A stretch of DNA of 64,000 bases from an uncultured bacterium. Its GTDB lineage: Bacteria; Eisenbacteria; RBG-16-71-46; CAZHEV01. The DNA lies in the NCBI GenBank assembly GCA_964531335.1, contig CAZHEV010000008.1, positions 68,452 to 132,451 on the forward strand. The letters run 5' to 3'. The position numbers and the translations under genes were made by a program. The notes beneath the pieces are model-generated. The model had not been told where the DNA came from, did not search any database, and saw only the letters and a list, made by a program, of their open reading frames with translations. Each line of letters starts with the position of its first letter. Position 1 is the first letter of the stretch. Of this stretch, positions 4,710 through 18,035 are shown piece after piece.

Positions 4710-6182
4710 CTAAAGCCAACTGCCCAGAGCGCGCTCGGCCTCAGTCACGGCCGACTTCACAGTCGCGGGAACGAGCCCCAGCTCATTCTCAAGCGCCTCG
4801 TGGGTCAATCTGCCCCCTCTCTCCCACAGGGAGACCATCAAAGAGCCGGCATCCGGGTTGAAGCACCAGTCATCTCCAAACCTTGCCCTGAAATAGGACC
4901 GCAGCGAGAAGCCGAGCATCAACCCCCGCAGCCGGTGAAAAGGTCCGAGCAGATCGCCCACACTCCTGAATATCATAGCACCCGCCGACCTGATTCCCAA
5001 AGCCGACCCCAAGACATTCGAAACCGCGGCCCCCAGCCCGGGGCCCCCTCCCTCCTCCACGAAGGCCGCCGCGAAGGCCGCGTCCCTCCTGTACCTCATC
5101 AGCGCCAACATGGCTCCCAGCGGCGGCCATTCCTTGCGCAGCTCGCCCCCATCGAGTCGTTCCAGGAAGGAGCGTTCCAGGAGCAGTCCCTCGAGCAAAT
5201 AGCCCCATGCGTGAGCAACGGCGGGATCGATCAGCCACCTGAGCTCGAAGGGCAACAGCCCGTTCGGATGCGAGTAGTTCAAGGCACGTCCAAGCTCGTG
5301 CACGTACAGCCCCGCATAGTCGAGGGAGTCTCGTCTCTCCCCCAACACAATCACCCGCTTGGGAACGTCCAGCGCCATGCAAAGAGGCGTCCCCAATCTG
5401 CCCTCCGCGCTCTTCAAGTCCATGAGCCGGCGTCGGACCCAACCGACCTCGATTCCGGCCGCTCCGAGCGCGGACAGAACGAGCTCCATTGAGCGCTCGA
5501 ACTCGACCTTGGGCGCCGCGCCCGCGGGACCCGCCAGCCACAGGAGATCGTGCTCCTCGACCAACTCGCGCGGCATATGGCACTTCTTCTTAATAAACCA
5601 TGATAATATATCGCCATAACCATCTGCAGTAGCTTCTAATAGCGACGTCGCAAGCTCGGCTGTTTCCACGACCGGAACGCCCATGCCGCATTCCGCCGCC
5701 ATCGCCGTGGAGTCGAACCCGAGCGCCCCGGACGCTGATGCGGCCTTGGCAAGCGCGTCGGCCGCCGAGCCAGCCAGCGGCAAGCTGGAGCCTCGCCAAA
5801 GCAAGTCCACCTCCGCGCGCACTGACCGATCATCCAGCTCTGCTATGAGTACTGGTGCCCTTCTCAGGCTCGCCTTGCCCACTCCGGGGACGGTCATGAC
5901 GCCTGAGGACTCGGCGGTCAGCAAGGCGTCAAGGGGGCCCGACATCGCGGCGTCTAGGTGGAGCTGGACAAGGTACCGTTCGAGAGGTCCCGGGCCGGCG
6001 CCGGTCACGCTGGGTGTCCAGTTCCCGGGATCCAGTAGGGGTGAAGCTGCGTCGTAGAGATCCCTCACACTGCTGTCGACCTTGACGCCCGAGAGCTGGA
6101 GGAATCTTTCCTCTTCAACAGCCTGGACGAGCTCTTCGAGCTCCATCTTGAAGTCGCGGCTATCTTCGCTTGCCATCGCCAA
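4710..6182 (-). CDS. hypothetical protein (490 aa)
   Basis: Long ORF with consistent GC3 bias. Contains VHELGRALNY, which is not a canonical HEXXH. No family recognised. Confidence 0.5.
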   Translation of the reverse strand: MAMASEDSRDFKMELEELVQAVEEERFLQLSGVKVDSSVRDLYDAASPLLDPGNWTPSVTGAGPGPLERYLVQLHLDAAMSGPLDALLTAESSGVMTVPGVGKASLRRAPVLIAELDDRSVRAEVDLLWRGSSLPLAGSAADALAKAASASGALGFDSTAMAAECGMGVPVVETAELATSLLEATADGYGDILSWFIKKKCHMPRELVEEHDLLWLAGPAGAAPKVEFERSMELVLSALGAAGIEVGWVRRRLMDLKSAEGRLGTPLCMALDVPKRVIVLGERRDSLDYAGLYVHELGRALNYSHPNGLLPFELRWLIDPAVAHAWGYLLEGLLLERSFLERLDGGELRKEWPPLGAMLALMRYRRDAAFAAAFVEEGGGPGLGAAVSNVLGSALGIRSAGAMIFRSVGDLLGPFHRLRGLMLGFSLRSYFRARFGDDWCFNPDAGSLMVSLWERGGRLTHEALENELGLVPATVKSAVTEAERALGSWL

Positions 6183-6310
6183 AGAAAAGAAGAGCCTTCT
6201 CAGAGAAGGCTCTTCCCCTGGTGCAGGTCAATGAGGGCGGGACAGCTTGTCCCGGATCGCAGAAGAACGACGTTTCACACCCCCGACGGAATGGGCAGGA
6301 AACCGGTGGT

Positions 6311-7438
6311 CTATCTGCCACGTCCTCCACGACTGCTTCGACCGGACGCTCGGCTGCCGGAGCTCCGTCCATCGGAGCTTCTGGAGCCGGACGATCTGCC
6401 CGATCTCATGCTGCTTCGCGAGTCGCCGCTCCTGGATCTGGAGGAACGCACGGAGCTGCCCCTGGAATCCCCGCTGCGTCCTGTCCTGGAGCGTTCCACC
6501 CGGCTCTTGCTTCTGGGGCTATCGGTCTTGTCTCTCGACCGGTAGTACCGGCTGTCCCTCGACGGGGCAGTGCGGCCGAGCCTGTCGGGATCGCGCCTGT
6601 AAGGGACTCTCTTCAGGTAGCCGTCCGAGCCCCGCTTGGTCCTGTAGATACCGGTTCTGCTCCTGTAGTCCTTTCCATAGCGCCAGTCTCGGTCTCCGCG
6701 GCCATCCGCGTACAATCCTCTAGGCTTCCCTTCCGGAAAGACGTAGCGGCCGTCGCGGGCCAGGTAACCTCCCCTGGCGCCCTTCTCCGCGTAAGTGTAC
6801 CTCGGCTTCAGCTTGTACCCGGACTTTCCCCTGTAGTGATAGCTGTCCGCCGGGTCTCCGCGCCGCCAGTGATGGCGGATCCCTCGTCCGACGACTATGT
6901 CCCCGCCCGGCCTGTAGGTCCAGCAGTCCCAGGGATAGTAGTAGGCGTAAGGGCTCCAGTGGTAGTAATACGGCCAGTAGTGATTGTAGTAGAACGCGTC
7001 GTAGTAGAAGGGCCTATGCCACCACCAATAAGGGTAGTACCAGCTATCGTAGTAGCCGAAGCTGAAATACAGGTGAACTCTGCTGCGGGGATGCCTGACC
7101 ACTACCACGTCGTCGTCATAGTAAGTGTCGTCTTGGTAGTAGTAGGAATCGTCCTCGTAGTATGTGTCTTGGTCTGGGTAAGCCTCGGCCTTGGGAGCGC
7201 CGGCCGAAGTCGCTATCATGTACTCGATGACCTCGGAGCTTACCCCCGCCTCCCAGAGCTCGATGATCTCCTCGGTTGAAAGGTCGAATGTCTCGCCCGA
7301 CGCCTCAATCTTGGCTATGATTATGGAGTCTTCGACGCCTGCCGAGCTCAGATATATGACGTCGTCCACACTGATAGCCAGAGCCGGGGAGGAAAGGAGG
7401 AAGGTAAACAGTATTGACAGGACGATCTTCTTGACCAT
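6311..7438 (-). CDS. secreted low-complexity protein: Tyr/Trp-rich core with Arg/Ser/Gly-rich C-terminal tail
   Basis: Signal peptide MVKKIVLSILFTFLLSSPALA. Acidic DxYY block, then WYYPYWWWHRPFYYDAFYYNHYWPYYYHWSPYAYYYPW, then RGD/RY repeats and a long RSxS(G) tail. ATG start. Confidence 0.6.
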   Translation of the reverse strand: MVKKIVLSILFTFLLSSPALAISVDDVIYLSSAGVEDSIIIAKIEASGETFDLSTEEIIELWEAGVSSEVIEYMIATSAGAPKAEAYPDQDTYYEDDSYYYQDDTYYDDDVVVVRHPRSRVHLYFSFGYYDSWYYPYWWWHRPFYYDAFYYNHYWPYYYHWSPYAYYYPWDCWTYRPGGDIVVGRGIRHHWRRGDPADSYHYRGKSGYKLKPRYTYAEKGARGGYLARDGRYVFPEGKPRGLYADGRGDRDWRYGKDYRSRTGIYRTKRGSDGYLKRVPYRRDPDRLGRTAPSRDSRYYRSRDKTDSPRSKSRVERSRTGRSGDSRGSSVRSSRSRSGDSRSSMRSGRSSGSRSSDGRSSGSRASGRSSRGGRGR

Positions 7439-7641
7439 TGGGAATCACCAGCCTTCCGTCGGTGGTCGCGCGCGCCGGTCCCTTCTTACATTATTTAGAT
7501 TACTTTCATCTTCATGCGGTGTCAAGGGTTATCTCGGCGGCGGACCGCCGAGCCGCTCTCCAAAACGCCCGTTTCTTGACATATCGCCTCCTTTCCAGCT
7601 AACTTGATTTCCAAGGAGGTAGGATCGAAAGGAGGCATCGC

Positions 7642-8274
7642 ATGAGTACGCGGTTGCGCTTGATGCCGCACGCCGTGGGTTGTAGTCTTCTAATTCTTTT
7701 CCTAGCCGCAACATCCGCCCCCGCCGACACCATCCCCCGCACATACGGCTTCAAGGCCGGGCACTGGATCCCCGGAGAGGAGCTGTTCCGGGATGTCCTG
7801 GGGAGCGGCCTCCTCATAGGCGGATCCTACTCGCTGTCGCTTAGGCCGGACCGATGGATCGACTTCGAGCTGCTTTACTGGAAGGGAGAAGGCGATTTCT
7901 CGCCCGCGCAGAACGAGATCAGGTCATCGAGCGTAACGCTCGTGCCGCTCGCCCTGAGCCTGAGGGCCGACCTGCAGGCGATTCGCGGCGTCCAGCCCTT
8001 CGCGCTGGGCGGGATAGACCTGAACATAGTGAAGGAAGAAGTCGAGATAGTGCAGACCGACATCGACCAGGGCGGGACCAACTCTCTCAGCAACGCCTTC
8101 CTCGGGCTCCACTTCGGAGCAGGCGCGCAGTACGAGATCAGCCCCAAGGCGCTCTTGTATCTGGAAGCAAGGCTGTCGATATCCAGCGCCGACATGGCCG
8201 GCGTCGGCGGGGTGGTGGGCAACGGAACCAGTCTGGGAGGAGTGGGAATACTCGCGGGTGTCAGAACAAGGTAG
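7642..8274 (+). CDS. outer-membrane beta-barrel protein (OmpW/OmpA-like small porin family)
   Basis: AGGAGG RBS and a signal peptide. Alternating amphipathic beta-strands. About 210 aa. Confidence 0.6.
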   Translation: MSTRLRLMPHAVGCSLLILFLAATSAPADTIPRTYGFKAGHWIPGEELFRDVLGSGLLIGGSYSLSLRPDRWIDFELLYWKGEGDFSPAQNEIRSSSVTLVPLALSLRADLQAIRGVQPFALGGIDLNIVKEEVEIVQTDIDQGGTNSLSNAFLGLHFGAGAQYEISPKALLYLEARLSISSADMAGVGGVVGNGTSLGGVGILAGVRTR

Positions 8275-10676: not shown

Positions 10677-13013
10677 TCACCGGTCCGAGGCCTGGGCCCA
10701 GCGGGACTCCCAGGGCGTCTCCAGCTCGAGGACGCCGAGCTTGGCCCGGACCACTATCTCCCCCAGGGAGGCGAGGGCCTCCTGGGACGAGGGTCTCAGC
10801 CTGAACGCCTCCCAGAAGTGGACGGCCGCACCGGCGGGCCTCCCGAATTGATAATCGCTCCTGCCCAGCCACATCCGCGAATCGTAGCTGCCTCGGTCCC
10901 GCCGCATGCTCTCCATCGCCCGCGCCCAATTGGCCAAGCGGCGCGCACGCTCCAGCGCCGGATCGATCTCCAGGGCGGCCAGCGCCGCATCGAGCGCTGC
11001 CGCGTAGTCTCCCTCCCTTGCCATGAGGGAGGCCATGGCCAGCCGCGGAGCCGCCGCCTCCGGATATATCGCCAGGGCCTCCTGCAAGATCTCACGCGCG
11101 CGGTCCGTTCGCTCGCGCGCGACGTAGAAGTCCGCCAGCTCCGCCAAAGCTCCGGGCCCGGCCGCGCCCTTCTCTCGAGCGATCTCCGTCCTCGCCGCCT
11201 CCATGGCGGCTATCGCCTCCTCACCCGCCCCTTTATCCACGGCGGCCGCGAGCGCGTCGCTCGCCTCTGCGTACCTACCGCTCTCCAGCAGCCACCATCC
11301 GGCCGTGTACATGACGTTTCCGCCGCGGCGGGCGGAGGCCGCAGCCGCCTCCCGGGCATGCTCCAGCGCCTCCTCCAAACGGGCCGATTTCTTGAGCGCC
11401 CCCGCCAGCCGGATCTTTCCGATCACAGAGTCGGGCTCCGCGGCGGCGGCGCGCGCGAAGTCCTCCACGTCGAGCTCGTAGACGTACCAAGTGTAGCCCA
11501 GGGTCAGGGACGGCTCGAAGGGGTCGAGCCACCTGTAGGCGGTGTCATCGCCCCTGAATATTCCTCTCAATGAGTTCACATTCACGGCTATCGTTCCCAC
11601 CGACGGAGAGTAGGCGCCGGGGTTGACCAAGACGGTGTCCCCGCGCGTCGATATGAAGGACGAGAGCATGCCGTCGTCCTGCCCCCAATCGACGTTCGAG
11701 TCTATCAGATATCTCGGCCCTCCCCTCGGGCCGCCCGCCGCCTCGTTGAAGTACGCCAGGTAGTGGGGATGCACTTGGAGAGAGCCCCAGGCGTACCACA
11801 GGGCGCCCGCGCCCAATAGCACGAGCCGGGGACCCCTTCCCCTGATAAGCCGCGCCGCCGCGGCCGAGGCGATCACCGCGGCGAAGGGATAGAACAGCAG
11901 GACGTGGCGGACTCCAATGTTTACGCCCGTCCAGGCCATTGCCACCAGGTATACCACAAGCGGGAGAAAGACGAAGAGCGCGTCCACCTTTCTGCGGGTC
12001 CACCCGCCCAGGACGATCGAGGCCGCGAAGAGCGCGAGCAGCGGGACAGGCGTCTTGACCGCCAGGGCTACCGGAAAGTAGTACCACCAGCCCCCCATTG
12101 ATCGCCTCCCCGCCAGATAGGCGAAGTGCCCCCCGGTCGAGTGCCGCAGCTTGCCCAGGGTGCCTTCCACGAACAGGTCGGGCAGAACAGATGAGTCCGC
12201 CATCTCGATCGCGGACTCACCCTCGGGCTCGGCCGGGGGCTGACCCGGCGCAGCGCCTCCTCCGGCCCGGACGGCCCCGCCGCCGGTCTCGGAAGAGCCC
12301 GCTCCGGATCCCACCGGCAGATGATAGACGATGTTCGACAGAGCGACCGTGCACCCGAGCATGAAGGCCAGGGCGAGCGCGCCCCTCGCGAGGCGCTTGA
12401 ACGTGGGGCCGGAGCGACAGACGGATACAAGCAGCAGGGCACAGAAGACGGGAAGAACCAGCAAGGCGGTGAACTTGCTGAGCAGCGCCGCCGTCATCGC
12501 CAGGCACGACGCCACCCAGTAACGGGCGCCGCCTGCCCGGTAGGACTTCCAGAGCAGGAAGAAAGCGGCAAACAAGAAGGCCGTCACTCCCAGGTCGAGC
12601 GTTGCGAGCCCGGAGTGCGCTATCACGTTCGGTTCGAAGCAGTACAGGAAGAGAGCGGCCGTTCCCGCCGCGGCCCCCAGCATGGCCCCGGCCCACGCGT
12701 AGACGAGGAGGGCGAGCGCCAGAGAGAGCGCAAGGACCGGCAGGCGGGCCGCCCAGAGCCCGTCGTCGGAGAAAGGAGAATAGCCCAGCTCTCCCAGGGC
12801 AAGCGGCGCCGCGACCAGGAGCTGCATCAATGGCGGGTTGTTGACGCCGCCGCTGAAGACACCGGTCTGCCAGTAGATGTATCCCGAAGGGAGATGAGCC
12901 CCGTGCTCGTCGCACACCCCCGACTTGGAAAGGATCGGCGGCACCGTCTGCGCCGCGAGGGCGGCGAGCAATAGAATGACCGCTGAATACCTTATCGCCT
13001 TTTCGCCTCTCAC
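10677..13013 (-). CDS. GT39/GT83-like (PMT/ArnT-type) polytopic membrane glycosyltransferase with C-terminal TPR repeats
   Basis: N-terminal multi-TM region like dolichyl-phosphate-mannose/undecaprenyl-phosphate glycosyltransferases. C-terminal TPR helical repeats. Confidence 0.75.
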   Translation of the reverse strand: MRGEKAIRYSAVILLLAALAAQTVPPILSKSGVCDEHGAHLPSGYIYWQTGVFSGGVNNPPLMQLLVAAPLALGELGYSPFSDDGLWAARLPVLALSLALALLVYAWAGAMLGAAAGTAALFLYCFEPNVIAHSGLATLDLGVTAFLFAAFFLLWKSYRAGGARYWVASCLAMTAALLSKFTALLVLPVFCALLLVSVCRSGPTFKRLARGALALAFMLGCTVALSNIVYHLPVGSGAGSSETGGGAVRAGGGAAPGQPPAEPEGESAIEMADSSVLPDLFVEGTLGKLRHSTGGHFAYLAGRRSMGGWWYYFPVALAVKTPVPLLALFAASIVLGGWTRRKVDALFVFLPLVVYLVAMAWTGVNIGVRHVLLFYPFAAVIASAAAARLIRGRGPRLVLLGAGALWYAWGSLQVHPHYLAYFNEAAGGPRGGPRYLIDSNVDWGQDDGMLSSFISTRGDTVLVNPGAYSPSVGTIAVNVNSLRGIFRGDDTAYRWLDPFEPSLTLGYTWYVYELDVEDFARAAAAEPDSVIGKIRLAGALKKSARLEEALEHAREAAAASARRGGNVMYTAGWWLLESGRYAEASDALAAAVDKGAGEEAIAAMEAARTEIAREKGAAGPGALAELADFYVARERTDRAREILQEALAIYPEAAAPRLAMASLMAREGDYAAALDAALAALEIDPALERARRLANWARAMESMRRDRGSYDSRMWLGRSDYQFGRPAGAAVHFWEAFRLRPSSQEALASLGEIVVRAKLGVLELETPWESRWAQASDR

Positions 13014-15133
13014 CGCCCGCTTCCCGCCGTGCCGGCTCCGGCCTCTTTCAGTTGATCGAGCAAGGACTTTACTCTGGCGTCCGAGGAATCCGACATCGCC
13101 GCCGAGCGCGCCTCGGCCAGGGCCTCCTCCAGCCGGCCCAGCACCACCAAGACCCTGGCCTTGGCCAGCCTGGCGTCCACGGAGCCGGGCGATATCGACA
13201 GAGCCCTGTCGAAATGATCGAGCGACTCCTCGTACTCGCCGCCGAGGGCCCTTGCTCTTCCGAGACTCATTGACGAGACCGCTATCTCTTTCCTGTTGCG
13301 CCCGAGCTCCAGAGCCCTCGTGTACACGGCGGCGGCCTCGCCGACCTTTCCCTCATCGACAAGGACGTCCCCGAGCCCCATCGCGGCCTCCCAGTAGTAA
13401 GGATCCGCCTCCAGGGCTTTGCGGTACGCGTCCGCGGCGCGGTCCGGCTCGCCGGAGCGGCTCACGCACAGTCCGAGGTTGTACCAGGACTTCGCGTACA
13501 ACGGCTCGGCCCGCGCGGCCTGTTCGAAGAGCGGGGCCGCCTGCGCGAACGCCCCGCGCCCCGCGAGCAGCACCCCCCACTGAAACAGCGGATCGGGGTC
13601 GCCCGGATTGTTCCGGGCCGCGCGCTCGAACATGGTCAGGGCCTCTTCGGTGGCCCCCTCGCGCCTGAGGATCATGGCCAGCTCGAACTCGGGACGGGAA
13701 TACTTTATGTCCGCTATACCGTACGCATCCACGTTCACCGCGACAGCTCCGAGGGCGGCCACCGACAGATAAGCCGCCGCGGACGCCTTGCGCCGGGAGA
13801 CCATGGCGGCCAGCGAAACCGCGGCGTAGCCGGCGAATATGCAAAGGACCGGAACGGATGTCATCCTGTATCGCGCGCAAACGAAAAACGCGACGGTGGC
13901 GATCACCTGCGAGAACAGGAAAAGGGCCGGAAGCCCCAGCGCGGCCCGGCGGCGGATCGCAAGCGCCATCCCCGCAAGAGCGAAAGGGGCGACCCACCTG
14001 AAGGACACAAGCGGATAGGCCATGAGCGGCGATTCCTCCGCCACGTGCGCGAAGGAGACGTTCCGCTCTATCTCGTGCCCGTTCCAGAAGAGCGCGAGCT
14101 TCTTGAAGAGAAGGCCCAGGTAATCGCCCGTGTTAGACGAGATGTAATCCCAGGCCTTGTCGTAGTAGTACCTCGACCATCCCGCCGGGTCCGTCGTCCT
14201 ATCGGCCTCGGGCTCCGCGGTAAGAAGATCCCACCGTATCCCGGGCCTTATTCCCACCGTACGGTCATAGTCGCCGTTGTTGCCCAGGTAGAAGTTGATT
14301 CCTCCGTTGTAGCTTATGGGGACGAATGACCCGCTTCTCACATAGTTCATGTACGTCACGGAGGCTACGGGCGCGAGCGCGCACGCGAGAAACAACCCGG
14401 CCGCCCCGTACGCCCCTAAGCGCCCCGTCCCGGTGAAGTGGCGCTTGCTCTCCGCCCTTCCGCGCTTGGAGCGACCCTCCCCGTCCGCCGTTCCGGGCTT
14501 TCGGGTTCCACGCCCCGGCGTCCTCGCCCGCCTGAGCATTAAGATCGCCCACAACAACGCCGCCGGGGCAAATACCAGGACCGTCGGCCGCGCGACCGCG
14601 GCAAGCCCCAGGAGAAGCCCGGACGCCCCCCATCGCCGGCGCCCGCCCTTCTCCGCAGCCTCGAGCAGCAGCGTCAGGGACGCCAGGGACAGGAACACGG
14701 CGAGAGAAGGGCGAAGTATCTCGGTGTCGAAGTGAACGGACATCGAGTACAGAGCGTACATGCAGCCCGCGGCGAATGCGGCCGCCCTGCCCGAGCAACG
14801 GCGCCCGATGAGATAGACCAGGATCGCGGAAGCGGATCCCAGGACGGCCTGGACGAGCCTGACCGCCAGCAGGTCATGCCCGAAGATCCTGTAGATGGCC
14901 GATAGAAAAAGAGGATACAGCGGGGCCTGGTAGAACGCGCCCTGCTCCGGCCAGGTCCCGCGCGCAAAGGCGGTGGCCCTGGTGTCGAAGTCGACGCTGT
15001 CCACGAGCAGATGGTCGAAAAACGGGCTGTCGCTCATCCACAGGATATGCAGGGTTCTGGCGCACAACGCCAGCGCGAAGACCGCCGCCGCCGCCATGTC
15101 GATCCGCAATCGAGCTTCCGCCGCCGATCCCAT
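13010..15133 (-). CDS. GT39/GT83-like (PMT/ArnT-type) membrane glycosyltransferase with C-terminal TPR repeats (paralog of downstream gene)
   Basis: Same architecture as 10677..13013. Its stop overlaps the next gene's start by 4 nt (ATGA), suggesting translational coupling. Confidence 0.75.
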   Translation of the reverse strand: MGSAAEARLRIDMAAAAVFALALCARTLHILWMSDSPFFDHLLVDSVDFDTRATAFARGTWPEQGAFYQAPLYPLFLSAIYRIFGHDLLAVRLVQAVLGSASAILVYLIGRRCSGRAAAFAAGCMYALYSMSVHFDTEILRPSLAVFLSLASLTLLLEAAEKGGRRRWGASGLLLGLAAVARPTVLVFAPAALLWAILMLRRARTPGRGTRKPGTADGEGRSKRGRAESKRHFTGTGRLGAYGAAGLFLACALAPVASVTYMNYVRSGSFVPISYNGGINFYLGNNGDYDRTVGIRPGIRWDLLTAEPEADRTTDPAGWSRYYYDKAWDYISSNTGDYLGLLFKKLALFWNGHEIERNVSFAHVAEESPLMAYPLVSFRWVAPFALAGMALAIRRRAALGLPALFLFSQVIATVAFFVCARYRMTSVPVLCIFAGYAAVSLAAMVSRRKASAAAYLSVAALGAVAVNVDAYGIADIKYSRPEFELAMILRREGATEEALTMFERAARNNPGDPDPLFQWGVLLAGRGAFAQAAPLFEQAARAEPLYAKSWYNLGLCVSRSGEPDRAADAYRKALEADPYYWEAAMGLGDVLVDEGKVGEAAAVYTRALELGRNRKEIAVSSMSLGRARALGGEYEESLDHFDRALSISPGSVDARLAKARVLVVLGRLEEALAEARSAAMSDSSDARVKSLLDQLKEAGAGTAGSGR

Positions 15134-15248: not shown

Positions 15249-18035
15249 ATGAAGACTCTTTCCATACTTTTCCTGAACGCCCTGATGCTCTCTCTTGCCG
15301 CGTGGCCTTCCCAAGCTCAGTTCATCACCTATGGGAAGAACAAGGTGCAGTATACCCGTTTCGACTGGGAGGTACTAGAGGGCGGCCAAGTGGATCTCTA
15401 CTATTACACGGAAGAGGCGGAGCTTGGGAAAATCGCCCTGGAGACGGCCGAGAGCTGGATAACGTACCTTGAGCAGGTCTTCGGCCATCGTCTCTCCGAG
15501 AGAGTGCCCCTGATCATCTTCAGCTCACACCATCATTTCGAGCAGACCAACGTCAGCCCGTACTTTCTCCCCGAGGGCGTAGCGGGAATGACCGAGCACA
15601 TGAAAGGGCGGGTGGTCGTGCCGTTCAACGGGTCGCTCGCGGACTTCAAGCGCACCATACGCCACGAGCTCGTGCACGTGTTTCAACTTTCCGCCATGGA
15701 GGAGGTCTACAGAAGACACCCCACCTCGGACATGCCCATGCTCCCGCTGTGGTTCACCGAGGGACTGGCGGACTACCTGCCGGAGCATTGGAGCACGGAC
15801 GCCGACATGGTGGTCAGGGATCTCGTGACTTCGAACATGCTGCCGCCGATGAGGCACTTGGACCGTCTGGGCTTCAGCTACGTAACCTACAAGGCGGGAC
15901 AATCCGCCGTCGGATACCTGATAGAGAACCACGGCATCGACAAGATCGCCCTGATATACCGGGACATGTGGAAAGGCCGGAACCTGACGGAGATACTCGA
16001 TCGGGCCTGCGGAATCAACATAGACAAGATGGGCGAGAAGTGGGCCTACGGGCTGAAGCTGAAGTACTTCCCCGAGTTCAAGGACTACGGGAGCTTCCTC
16101 CCCTGTTGCTCCGTCCGATCGTCGGACTACTACTGCTTCAAGCCGAGGCTCGTGGAGGGGGCCGGACAGGACTCCCTCAGTATCGTTTACATCTCATTGG
16201 ATACAGGCTACACCACGATACGCAAGAAGAGCCTGGGGAGAGAAGACCACGACGCCCGGACCATACTGCAAGGTCAGAGGAAGGCGCAGTTCGAGTCGCT
16301 CCACCCCTTCAGCAGCCGCATGGATGTGTCCGCCGACGGGCTTCTCGCCTTCGTCTCCAAACACGGGGAGACGGACGCTCTCTTCGTGCACGATCTGGAC
16401 GGCGGCGAGATCCTGGGAAGCGATCGTTTCAGCGGCCTGGTATCCCTGTCTTCGCCGAGCTGGTCACCGGACGGAACGGACGTCGCCTTCTCGGCGATGT
16501 CCGTGGACGGAAAGTCGGACCTCTACGTCTTCGACCGGCAGGCGGGTGATCTGGACAGGCTGACCAACGACTGGTACTTGGACTCGGACCCCGCGTGGTC
16601 TCCCGACGGGAGATGGATAGCCTTCTCCTCGGATCGCACGCACTACGGATCGGATGGGGCGATGAACCTGTTCCTGTTCGATATGGAGTCTAGAGAGATC
16701 CTCTTTCTAACCAGCGGGCCTTGGAAGGACCAGAGCCCGACGTGGTCCCCGGACGGCGACAGAGTGCTGTTCACGTCCGACCGCGAGGGCATCTACAACA
16801 TCTACAGCGCGGATCTCCGGGGATACGGGCGCCGCGAGACCTGTTTCGTGGGCGCCGCCATGGACCCCCAGTGGGGGCCGGGCGAGAACGAGGTAACCTT
16901 CGTCGGCTACAACCAGGGCACTTTCAGGATCTACACCGCGGAGATGGCCCCGAGCGCCTCCAGCGCTTTCGCCCTCGACGCCCCGCCCAGCGAAGCCACG
17001 TGGAGCCCCGAGAGCTCCATCGCCACGGTGGCATACAACGCGGAGGACTACGAGCCCAGCTACGGATTGGATTTCGCTCAGGGAGGCGTGCTCGTCGATC
17101 CTACGCTGGGCGCGGGTCAAGGGCTCCAGTTCGTTATGAGCGACATGATGGGAGACAGGATTCTAGTCCTGCAATTCAGCAATACCGCGCAAACGACCGA
17201 CGAGCTGCTCTCCCACTTCAACGTGGCCGTGGTCCGTTTCAACCTGGGGAACCGGGTAAACTACGGCTACGGCGGCTTCCACCTGGTCGGCGATTTCTAC
17301 GACGAGGCCGGCTTTCCTTTCTTCGAACGGCGCATCGGAGGCGAGTTCATCGCGAGATACCCGTTCTCGAGATACGCGAGAATGGAGGCGTCCGCCGCGC
17401 TGTATCACTCCACGAAGGAAGAGCTGGCGAGAGAGCGCAAGGGATTGATGCTCCAGAACAGCTTCTCCCTGACCCGCGACACTTCCCTCTGGTTGATGAC
17501 GGGCCCCATAGACGGAGAACGCTATTACCTCTCGCTCGGTGTCGCCACCGACTTGTCCAGCGGGACGGCCGAGAACGTGGCCGCGGTCCTGGACCTGCGC
17601 AAGTACCTCAGAGTCGGTCTGCGGTCCGCCTACGCGGTGAGGTTCCTAGGGGAGATGAGCTACGGCTCCGATCCCTACCGTTTCTCCCTCGGAGGACCGT
17701 TCTCCCTGAGGGGTTACCCGCGTTTCGCCCTCACCGGCACCAGGGCTCTTCTGTTGTCTCAGGAGCTGCGGTTTCCCATGATACGGAGGTTCGCGCTCAG
17801 CACGCCCCTCGGCGGGCTTGAGTTTCCGAGCCTGCAAGGTGTAATCTTCTTTGACGCCGCGACGGCATGGGTTTCCGACGATGAGGTCCTCGATCCGTTC
17901 GGGAGTTTCGGGATCGGTCTGCGCCTTGCCCTCGGCCCCTTCGCGGCGATCAAGCTGGATATCGCGAAGCTCACTGATTTCGAGATGGTACAGAAGGAAA
18001 TGGAAGTTGACATATCCCTGGGTTGGAACTTCTAG
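15249..18035 (+). CDS. large exported fusion protein: N-terminal HEXXH zincin-like (peptidase MA-like) domain + TolB-like PD40 beta-propeller repeats + C-terminal Omp85/surface-antigen beta-barrel
   Basis: Signal peptide. IRHELVHVF then FTEGLADY (HExxH plus downstream E). Multiple WSPDG/PD40 repeats. The C-terminus (FDAATAW...GIGLRLALGPFAAIKLDIA...) resembles the bacterial surface antigen (BamA/TamA) barrel terminus. Confidence 0.8.
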   Translation: MKTLSILFLNALMLSLAAWPSQAQFITYGKNKVQYTRFDWEVLEGGQVDLYYYTEEAELGKIALETAESWITYLEQVFGHRLSERVPLIIFSSHHHFEQTNVSPYFLPEGVAGMTEHMKGRVVVPFNGSLADFKRTIRHELVHVFQLSAMEEVYRRHPTSDMPMLPLWFTEGLADYLPEHWSTDADMVVRDLVTSNMLPPMRHLDRLGFSYVTYKAGQSAVGYLIENHGIDKIALIYRDMWKGRNLTEILDRACGINIDKMGEKWAYGLKLKYFPEFKDYGSFLPCCSVRSSDYYCFKPRLVEGAGQDSLSIVYISLDTGYTTIRKKSLGREDHDARTILQGQRKAQFESLHPFSSRMDVSADGLLAFVSKHGETDALFVHDLDGGEILGSDRFSGLVSLSSPSWSPDGTDVAFSAMSVDGKSDLYVFDRQAGDLDRLTNDWYLDSDPAWSPDGRWIAFSSDRTHYGSDGAMNLFLFDMESREILFLTSGPWKDQSPTWSPDGDRVLFTSDREGIYNIYSADLRGYGRRETCFVGAAMDPQWGPGENEVTFVGYNQGTFRIYTAEMAPSASSAFALDAPPSEATWSPESSIATVAYNAEDYEPSYGLDFAQGGVLVDPTLGAGQGLQFVMSDMMGDRILVLQFSNTAQTTDELLSHFNVAVVRFNLGNRVNYGYGGFHLVGDFYDEAGFPFFERRIGGEFIARYPFSRYARMEASAALYHSTKEELARERKGLMLQNSFSLTRDTSLWLMTGPIDGERYYLSLGVATDLSSGTAENVAAVLDLRKYLRVGLRSAYAVRFLGEMSYGSDPYRFSLGGPFSLRGYPRFALTGTRALLLSQELRFPMIRRFALSTPLGGLEFPSLQGVIFFDAATAWVSDDEVLDPFGSFGIGLRLALGPFAAIKLDIAKLTDFEMVQKEMEVDISLGWNF

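Follow-up and report, generated by a model that had tools for sequence, protein, structure and literature searches.

A conserved bacterial gene for a predicted exported protein with a helical head, a Tyr/Trp-rich block and an Arg/Ser/Gly tail

Structure and conservation of the gene

We analyzed a 64,000-nucleotide stretch of DNA from an uncultured Eisenbacteria genome (assembly GCA_964531335.1, contig CAZHEV010000008.1, positions 68,452 to 132,451; hereafter the window), in which a minus-strand open reading frame (ORF) at 6311..7438 encodes a 375-residue, predicted exported protein, hereafter the query. A first-pass annotation made from the DNA letters had described a Tyr/Trp-rich block followed by an Arg/Ser/Gly tail, and our reading of the ORF, together with the composition of each segment, confirms this layout. 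The features of the gene, from its promoter to its terminator, are as follows.

7497..7525, minus strand: sigma-70-type promoter, with -35 hexamer TTGACA (7520..7525), a 17-nucleotide spacer and -10 hexamer TAATCT (7497..7502)
7444..7450, minus strand: Shine-Dalgarno-like TGGTGAT, 5 to 6 nucleotides before the ATG
6311..7438, minus strand: coding sequence, 375 residues plus a TAG stop codon (6311..6313)
7376..7438, minus strand: Sec-type signal peptide, residues 1-21, MVKKIVLSILFTFLLSSPALA followed by IS, from direct sequence reading
7199..7375, minus strand: four-helix domain (the head), residues 22-80, with two helix-turn-helix repeats of about 28 residues in the AlphaFold2 (AF2) model
7103..7198, minus strand: acidic Asp/Tyr/Glu linker, residues 81-112 (D9 Y8 E2), from composition
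6914..7102, minus strand: aromatic block, residues 113-175 (Y19 W8 F4 H5 P6 of 63 residues)
6584..6913, minus strand: basic Arg/Gly/Tyr region, residues 176-285 (R21 G19 Y13 D11 K8; net charge about +16), with two RGD motifs
6314..6583, minus strand: Arg/Ser/Gly tail, residues 286-375 (S30 R25 G13 of 90 residues; net charge about +20), ending in SSRGGRGR
6180..6216, minus strand: intrinsic-terminator-like 13-bp hairpin, GGAAGAGCCUUCU-CUG-AGAAGGCUCUUCU, followed by UUUCUUU
6170..7279, plus strand: antisense ORF of 369 residues, a shadow and not a gene

Twelve metagenomic orthologues (348 to 405 residues, 44 to 56% identity) are collinear with the query across all segments, including the tail. 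The signal peptide has a KK pair, a hydrophobic core and a cleavage site of the AxA type (ALA/IS); its end reads SSSASA/LT in the orthologues, the cleavage region being conserved, and in distant relatives a lipobox, [LI][SAT]GC, occupies the same position. Both the AxA site and the relatives' lipoboxes support export, in agreement with the secreted product first proposed. The head is acidic (E9 D4 K1, net charge about -12) and carries the repeat motifs DDVIxLSxAGVxDxIIxxKI and EEIIxLxxAGVSxxVIEYMI; the peptide IEASGETFDLSTEEIIELWEAGVSSEVIEYMIATSAGAPK belongs to this helical domain. The linker that follows is acidic in every orthologue and varies in length and sequence, and it holds the only DNA-level repeat in the gene, a 21-bp unit present in 2.6 copies at 7108..7162 (Tandem Repeats Finder) that codes for YYEDDSY, YYQDDTY and YDDD.

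The aromatic block includes, at residues 134-170, the string cited by the first-pass annotation (YYPYWWWHRPFYYDAFYYNHYWPYYYHWSPYAYYYPW). Its core reads HLYFxFGYYDxWYYPYWWW..RP...WPYYYxWxPYAYYYPWDCW, with one conserved cysteine (Cys172), and the orthologue alignment is near-invariant at L123, F125, G128, Y129, Y130, D131, W133, Y134, Y135, P136, W138, W140, P143, W155, P156, D171 and W173. Tyrosine and tryptophan make up 27 of its 63 residues, for which hand arithmetic gives a binomial probability near 1e-19 against the 4 to 5% background typical of proteins; conservation of the block in 12 homologues is, judged from their alignment, the better argument that it did not arise by chance. Conserved motifs in the basic region are RHHWRR (188-193), SGYxLKPxY (206-214) and RGGYLARDGRYVFP (222-235), with G186, G223, G230, R231, V233 and P235 invariant. 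Of the RSxSG repeats first reported in the tail, the Ser/Arg/Gly bias over 90 residues stands, but the repeats do not: Tandem Repeats Finder detected no DNA tandem repeat in 6314..6583, and the bias of the tail is compositional rather than periodic. Its C terminus, GR[GKRS][RK], is shared by 12 of 13 sequences. Read from composition, the approximately 295 residues after the head are a charge-segregated block polymer that passes from an acidic Asp/Tyr linker through a neutral Tyr/Trp/Pro block to Arg/Gly/Tyr and finally Arg/Ser segments.

The ORF at 6311..7438 is a real, conserved gene under selection. GC content at codon positions 1, 2 and 3 is 0.50, 0.535 and 0.755, and the third-position value falls inside the 0.69 to 0.87 span of the other 43 genes in the window; the earlier judgment that this is a genuine gene with maintained third-position bias thus holds, and the orthologues and the substitution pattern agree with it. 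A codon alignment with the gene for P0004 contains 105, 81 and 197 differences at positions 1, 2 and 3, respectively, or 9, 7 and 25 in the aromatic block alone, and the third-position bias extends to the tail. Because of this third-position excess, the low-complexity part is judged to be under purifying selection at the protein level. Indels between orthologues are in frame, and the sense-frame protein is kept. The antisense ORF has mirror-image GC values (0.746, 0.562 and 0.508 at positions 1, 2 and 3) and is reduced to 205 and 212 residues in two orthologous loci (L002 and L010, respectively) in which the sense ORF is intact. On these grounds we rejected it as the true product, the outcome that would have overturned the first-pass assignment.

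Signals for expression point the same way. The promoter hexamers and their spacing are conserved in an alignment of the regions upstream of the window gene and its L002 and L010 orthologues, and the Shine-Dalgarno-like region (GCTGGTGAT) is kept in all three loci. Downstream, the terminator hairpin (6216..6188) is present in both the minimum free energy and the centroid RNA folds; the L002 orthologue has the identical stem (GAAGAGCCTTC..GAAGGCTCTTC) followed by TTGTGTT, and the L010 orthologue has a different hairpin and a T-run. A consensus promoter and terminator scanner applied to 6000..7800 of the window and 9800..11700 of L002 did not report the conserved promoter or the 13-bp hairpin; since both are evident by alignment, folding and direct reading, these scanner negatives are not readable as absence. 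The gene looks like a self-contained transcription unit.

The helical head and its aromatic-tailed relatives

We next compared the predicted structure and distribution of the two halves of the protein. In the full-length AF2 model, based on the family alignment, the predicted local distance difference test (pLDDT) score is 80 to 90 for residues 23-78 and below 50 for residues 81-375. The head modeled alone from a 23-sequence alignment reaches a pLDDT of 91.4 and forms four helices in two helix-turn-helix repeats, so the acidic segment that the first-pass annotation described as folded-looking corresponds to a real folded domain. The remainder (residues 81-375) is predicted to be disordered, and its low pLDDT may partly reflect the shallow 13-sequence alignment. 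Judged from that alignment, the near-invariance of the aromatic core and the basic motifs exceeds what a purely compositional constraint would produce.

The head is abundant and has no model in the family databases. Neither Pfam nor NCBIfam has a family that matches the query at an E value of 10 or below, and comparison of the head with small helical families gave sub-threshold echoes only. Searches of PDB sequences returned a low-complexity match to mitoribosomal mL77 with the family profile and a 13-residue turn (MKEKGVKPDVVTY) of designed PPR repeats with the head profile, and Foldseek found nothing significant in the PDB for the head model (best E value, 1.6). A homologue search with a 63-residue head profile added little (2 matches). 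Profile A3 of the head, searched against 1.84 billion cluster representatives, matched 16,367 at an E value of 1e-3 or below and 4,300 at 1e-10 or below (query, 99.8 bits, E value 4.4e-24). Among the A3 matches listed, the head commonly occurs in 2 to 9 tandem copies, and it co-occurs or is fused with BlaR1/M56 and HtpX/M48 proteases, HtrA, BamA/POTRA, CsgG, DUF2846 and Gly-zipper/OmpA-like lipoproteins. Because it is abundant and has such varied envelope fusions, the head is taken to be a generic extracytoplasmic module.

The first-pass annotation called the composition rare in bacteria, which is true of the full architecture (13 clusters among 5.8 billion) but not of the pairing of the head with a Tyr/Trp-rich tail. 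A profile of the N-terminal 240 residues matched 43 proteins, comprising 13 of full architecture, two of similar layout (P0015 and P0016) and about 25 lipoproteins of 160 to 250 residues, in which a lipobox and the head are combined with a Tyr/Trp-rich tail and the Arg/Ser tail is missing. One further relative of the small-lipoprotein type, encoded by "Candidatus Latescibacter anaerobius" (AQSL01000146; L003 9884..10621), was the only one found by a scan of genome contigs, and a scan of metagenomes yielded no contig beyond one already carrying P0009. The head is joined to an aromatic tail in the lipoproteins P0017-P0038 and also in P0115, P0043, P0044, P0118, P0137, P0169, P0173, P0174 and P0181, many with a Gly/Arg end, and a GYYDPWYY-type core recurs in the distant relatives P0016, P0137 and P0174. 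The best 40-residue window contains 25 Tyr, Trp or Phe residues in the query and 15 to 26 in relatives. Among the A3 matches listed, which are biased toward the aromatic-tail proteins from which the profile was built, 15 new representatives have at least 14 Tyr or Trp residues per 40; most single-head proteins have an aromatic tail, in many cases with Gly/Ser/Arg at its end (P0115, P0118, P0137, P0169, P0173, P0174 and P0181), and so do several proteins with two head copies (P0049, P0054, P0058 and P0148). As far as these sequences can tell, the pairing clearly recurs beyond one clade, in several lineages.

The small-lipoprotein relatives (the Latescibacter protein, P0017-P0038, P0115, P0137, P0169 and P0174) share with the query a signal peptide, a homologous two-repeat head and an aromatic tail whose core resembles GYxPYDYWYY or GYYDPWYY, and Gly/Arg ends are frequent among them. 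Unlike the query, they are mostly 160 to 250 residues long, have a lipobox Cys as lipid anchor and lack the 90-residue Arg/Ser tail, RHHWRR and RDGRYVFP; none has been characterized or named. By its sequence, the query belongs to an unnamed group that we define here by a signal peptide or lipobox, the A3 two-repeat head and an adjoining Tyr/Trp-rich region, and it has all three features. The full design has no characterized bacterial relative, and the family itself is uncharacterized; a literature search on periplasmic proteins rich in aromatic residues or in Tyr brought up nothing directly relevant.

Several known systems resemble parts of the query. The YXWGXW/WXXGXW (PF12779) and glycine-zipper lipoproteins are likewise small exported proteins with aromatic/Gly low complexity, and the relative P0043 carries the Gly-zipper PF13441; however, the query matches zero Pfam families at the E value given above, and it has the motif Pro-(Tyr/Trp)4-5 instead of YxWGxW. 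The curli subunits CsgA/CsgB are marked by imperfect Gln/Asn/Gly repeats and a csgDEFG-type secretion operon; the query matches no Pfam family of theirs, and its neighborhood has no CsgG, CsgE or CsgF gene, CsgG domains being confined to other proteins with the helical module. Signal peptides in the clade (M-x-K-R-T-F-F) look Tat-like with KR, and tatA is a downstream neighbor in the clade. Tat substrates carry the twin-arginine motif S/T-R-R-x-F-L-K, whereas the window protein has KK and its orthologues KR; a disordered passenger and an h-region of strong hydrophobicity are more in keeping with Sec than with Tat. FUS family and SR proteins, like the query, have aromatic "stickers" within the same disordered chain as Arg-rich regions, and the query tail is dense in RS/SR; unlike them, the query has no RRM or RNA-binding domain, is exported by a cleavable N-terminal signal peptide rather than nuclear, is rich in Trp and Pro and has just two RGG motifs. 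The RS dipeptides of SR proteins are phosphorylated by SRPK/CLK kinases, and no kinase gene occurs among the genes that flank the query gene.

Tyr-rich proteins are also known from the Bacillus spore coat (CotC and CotU). In CotG and CotB of the same coat, the SKR regions are Ser-plus-basic low-complexity sequences that shape the spore surface layer (PMC7821199), and in this respect they resemble the query. CotG and CotB, however, are produced in the mother-cell cytoplasm, have no signal peptide, contain true tandem repeats and need the adjacent CotH kinase, whereas the query has a Sec signal, a diderm host and no Ser/Lys/Arg tandem repeats, and there is no cotH or other kinase gene among its flanking genes (OMP [outer-membrane protein], ACD [ADP-forming acyl-CoA synthetase], PMT_2-TPR, TatA and thioredoxin-like). 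The query is not a member of the SR proteins, CotG/CotB SKR proteins, YXWGXW proteins, curli or Tat substrates; in each case, it lacks a tested defining feature.

Genomic neighborhood

The query gene lies in an envelope setting. Genes for an OMP beta-barrel, an Omp85-like domain, a LolA-like protein, TatA, RND pumps and an OprB porin are present in the window, and the host, having outer-membrane proteins, is a diderm. Two neighboring genes are referred to repeatedly below.

7642..8274, plus strand: divergent outer-membrane beta-barrel protein, 210 residues (Pfam OMP_b-brl, E value 8.5e-6, below the gathering score)
L004 7497..7889 and L009 385..777: 130-residue gene upstream of P0013 and P0016, respectively

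The OMP gene is a conserved neighbor clade-wide, in the window and four further orthologous contig records. These five share the order ACD, the divergent OMP of about 210 residues, the query gene, tatA, a thioredoxin/TPR gene, a LolA-like gene and RND pumps, and on the opposite side of the locus lie two PMT_2+TPR glycosyltransferases and a Peptidase_MA/PD40/Omp85-like protein. Because the clade is narrow, this synteny is weak evidence for a functional link. The two PMT_2+TPR genes are adjacent (10677..15133, minus strand) and have a TMTC-like architecture. The gene that adjoins them in all clade loci (15249..18035 in the window, plus strand) encodes a 928-residue protein of unusual architecture, in which a Peptidase_MA_2 domain is combined with PD40 beta-propeller repeats and a C-terminal Omp85-like barrel. 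Only in this genome does an additional ORF of 488 residues (4710..6176, minus strand) lie between the query gene and tatA; it is missing there in the orthologous contigs, has no Pfam or NCBIfam match and starts with an ATG just 4 nucleotides past the U-tract of the terminator hairpin.

Outside the clade, the contexts differ. P0013 and P0016 have upstream of them a common 130-residue secreted or anchored protein (53% identity) with the motif GVFGVGGVLTAxGxLWQYRP, which matches no family and lacks a homologue in the window. P0013 is followed, 21 bp on, by genes for an ArnC/PgfS-like GT2 glycosyltransferase, a LAB_N protein and an ArnT-like PMT_2 protein (L004 9207..11933). The small-lipoprotein relatives have unrelated gene contexts; downstream of both P0038 and P0040 (L006 8001..13097 and L008 8001..13100) come an ABC-F-type double-ATPase gene and a Ser/Thr kinase-FGE-sulfatase fusion, a synteny kept within their subfamily. 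We considered a conserved operon partner and dropped the idea, the OMP being clade-specific, the 130-residue gene having no homologue in the window and the PMT_2 link being inconsistent.

Possible roles in the cell envelope

We tentatively favor, at a probability of about 0.4, a reading of the product as an envelope-resident adaptor or "glue." The exported protein would stay in the diderm cell envelope in a structural role, its Trp/Tyr block partitioning into membrane interfaces or stacking on glycan strands and its polycationic Arg/Ser tail binding anionic polymers such as the phosphates of lipopolysaccharide (LPS) or phospholipids and the carboxylates of peptidoglycan. Contacts between Tyr/Trp and Arg and between acidic and basic blocks could lead to self-association, and the helical head, a module common to many periplasmic proteases, sensors and lipoproteins, could dock a protein partner. 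The related small lipoproteins would be anchored by their N-terminal lipid, for which the Arg/Ser tail may substitute in the window clade. Trp and Tyr have the highest membrane-interface affinity on the Wimley-White scale, and binding to anionic membranes is known from Trp/Pro/Arg peptides, indolicidin and tritrpticin among them. An envelope-resident role is further supported by the lipoprotein relatives.

Several observations weigh against this reading. As far as the sequenced loci indicate, conservation of any partner gene ends with the narrow clade: the OMP is clade-specific, and P0013 and P0016 share the 130-residue gene instead. That the aromatic core is so strongly conserved points to a specific structure, possibly an oligomer or a cross-beta core, rather than to a fuzzy, composition-driven glue. 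Finally, the proteins of the window clade have no lipid or transmembrane anchor, and release from the cell is therefore possible. The present evidence does not separate the mechanistic readings, and the adhesive, biomineralizing and condensate-forming likenesses raised by the first-pass annotation are best read as analogies of composition alone.

The query could instead be a secreted extracellular matrix, adhesive or condensate-forming protein that crosses the outer membrane and coacervates or gels on the cell surface through Tyr/Trp-Arg contacts (as in FUS or mussel glue) and acidic-basic blocks, which we consider possible but unlikely. Such behavior would suit a triblock polyampholyte with aromatic stickers, RG/RS-rich regions, a tail predicted to be disordered and no membrane anchor, and export could, in principle, be a task of the conserved divergent OMP. 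However, a barrel of 210 residues, the size of an 8-stranded one, is too small for a protein conduit, the locus shows no known signal or machinery for outer-membrane secretion (the families listed for the flanking genes include none of the type IX, type V or curli machinery), the nearest relatives are lipoproteins and heads of this kind typify periplasmic proteins. As a precedent, a surface condensate is reported for curli biogenesis (bioRxiv 10.1101/2022.10.20.513119). We give still less weight to a related proposal, in which the protein would scaffold an extracytoplasmic condensate or hydrogel, in the periplasm or on the surface, by phase separation through a FUS-like grammar, with an added acidic block for self-coacervation; it would bring order to parts of the envelope or act as a template for a mineral or adhesive layer and could be tuned by O-glycosylation of the tail.

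Such modification of the tail is itself a candidate function, if a rather doubtful one. The Ser-rich tail would be a substrate for extracytoplasmic O-glycosylation (or phosphorylation), performed by a polyprenyl-phosphate-sugar synthase together with a GT-C enzyme, which would protect it from proteolysis or tune its charge; this is compatible with an envelope glue. A precedent is known from streptococci, in which a GT-A and GT-C pair adds O-linked glycans to Ser/Thr-rich disordered regions outside the cytoplasm and thereby protects them from proteolysis (PMC12041528). Like the query, the streptococcal tails (on PrsA, PBP1a and others) are Ser-rich, disordered, C-terminal and extracytoplasmic (PMC12041528), and GT-A/GT-C genes lie near some members of the query family; unlike that of the query, the streptococcal tails show no enrichment in Arg and no aromatic block, and the proteins that bear them are known enzymes or chaperones of Gram-positive bacteria. 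The glycosyltransferase genes that follow P0013 and the two PMT_2+TPR (GT-C) genes that lie 3 to 8 kb away on the same strand, in the window and all clade loci, hint that the Ser-rich tail, or lipid A, may be glycosylated. This link is inconsistent, however: the gene downstream of P0016 (L009) looks like tsaD by its translation, and two unrelated genes, one of them on the other strand, separate the PMT_2 genes of the window from the query gene. Moreover, ArnC/ArnT-like pairs usually act on lipid A, the NCBIfam scores are far below equivalog cut-offs and PMT_2 genes are common in such genomes.

A role in binding or templating minerals (silica or metal oxides) is very unlikely. Its basis is the composition of the tail (S30 R25 G13 of 90 residues), which recalls silaffin R5, CotB1p and "RSG" peptides. 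Arg/Ser-rich peptides, including the bacterial "Wa-RSG" and the cationic C terminus of Bacillus cereus CotB1, bind or precipitate silica (PMC11818168), and relatives of the query come from metagenome and metagenome-assembled genome (MAG) assemblies. The likeness of silaffin R5, CotB1p and the Arg/Ser/Gly silica peptides to the tail is purely one of Ser, basic and Gly composition (PMC11818168), and nearly any polycation precipitates silica in vitro; the silica-forming peptides are 7 to 30 residues long and defined by activity in vitro, and we found neither homology to them nor a mineral context, with no mineral-related genes nearby. This role would also leave the aromatic core and the helical head unexplained. 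Less probable again is a precursor from which a Trp/Tyr/Arg-rich, membrane-active (antimicrobial or toxin) peptide is proteolytically released: YYPYWWWHRPFYY with its flanking Arg resembles the Trp/Pro/Arg peptides indolicidin and tritrpticin, but no immunity, processing-protease or exporter gene lies alongside, the strict synteny and chromosomal location of the gene throughout the clade are unlike those of typical bacteriocin loci, and the aromatic block carries almost no charge itself. A frame artefact, with the 369-residue ORF open on the opposite strand as the true product, is effectively refuted by that ORF's mirror-image GC and its interruption in orthologous loci, by the in-frame indels and third-position substitutions of the conserved sense protein and by a promoter and terminator conserved in the sense orientation.

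Very little work exists on disordered regions beyond the cytoplasm of bacteria, the best current example being the streptococcal Ser/Thr-rich tails (PMC12041528). The family described here joins a folded envelope module with compositions, aromatic and Arg/Ser, that are among the most extreme in a selected bacterial gene. If the tail is an envelope glue or condensate scaffold, it would offer a tractable system for how diderms organize the periplasm without ATP and a test of the cation-pi sticker grammar outside eukaryotic nuclei, and such sequences could perhaps be used as adhesive or mineral-binding tags. Whatever the role of the tail, the head, present in more than 16,000 clusters and without a Pfam or NCBIfam model, merits definition as a family.

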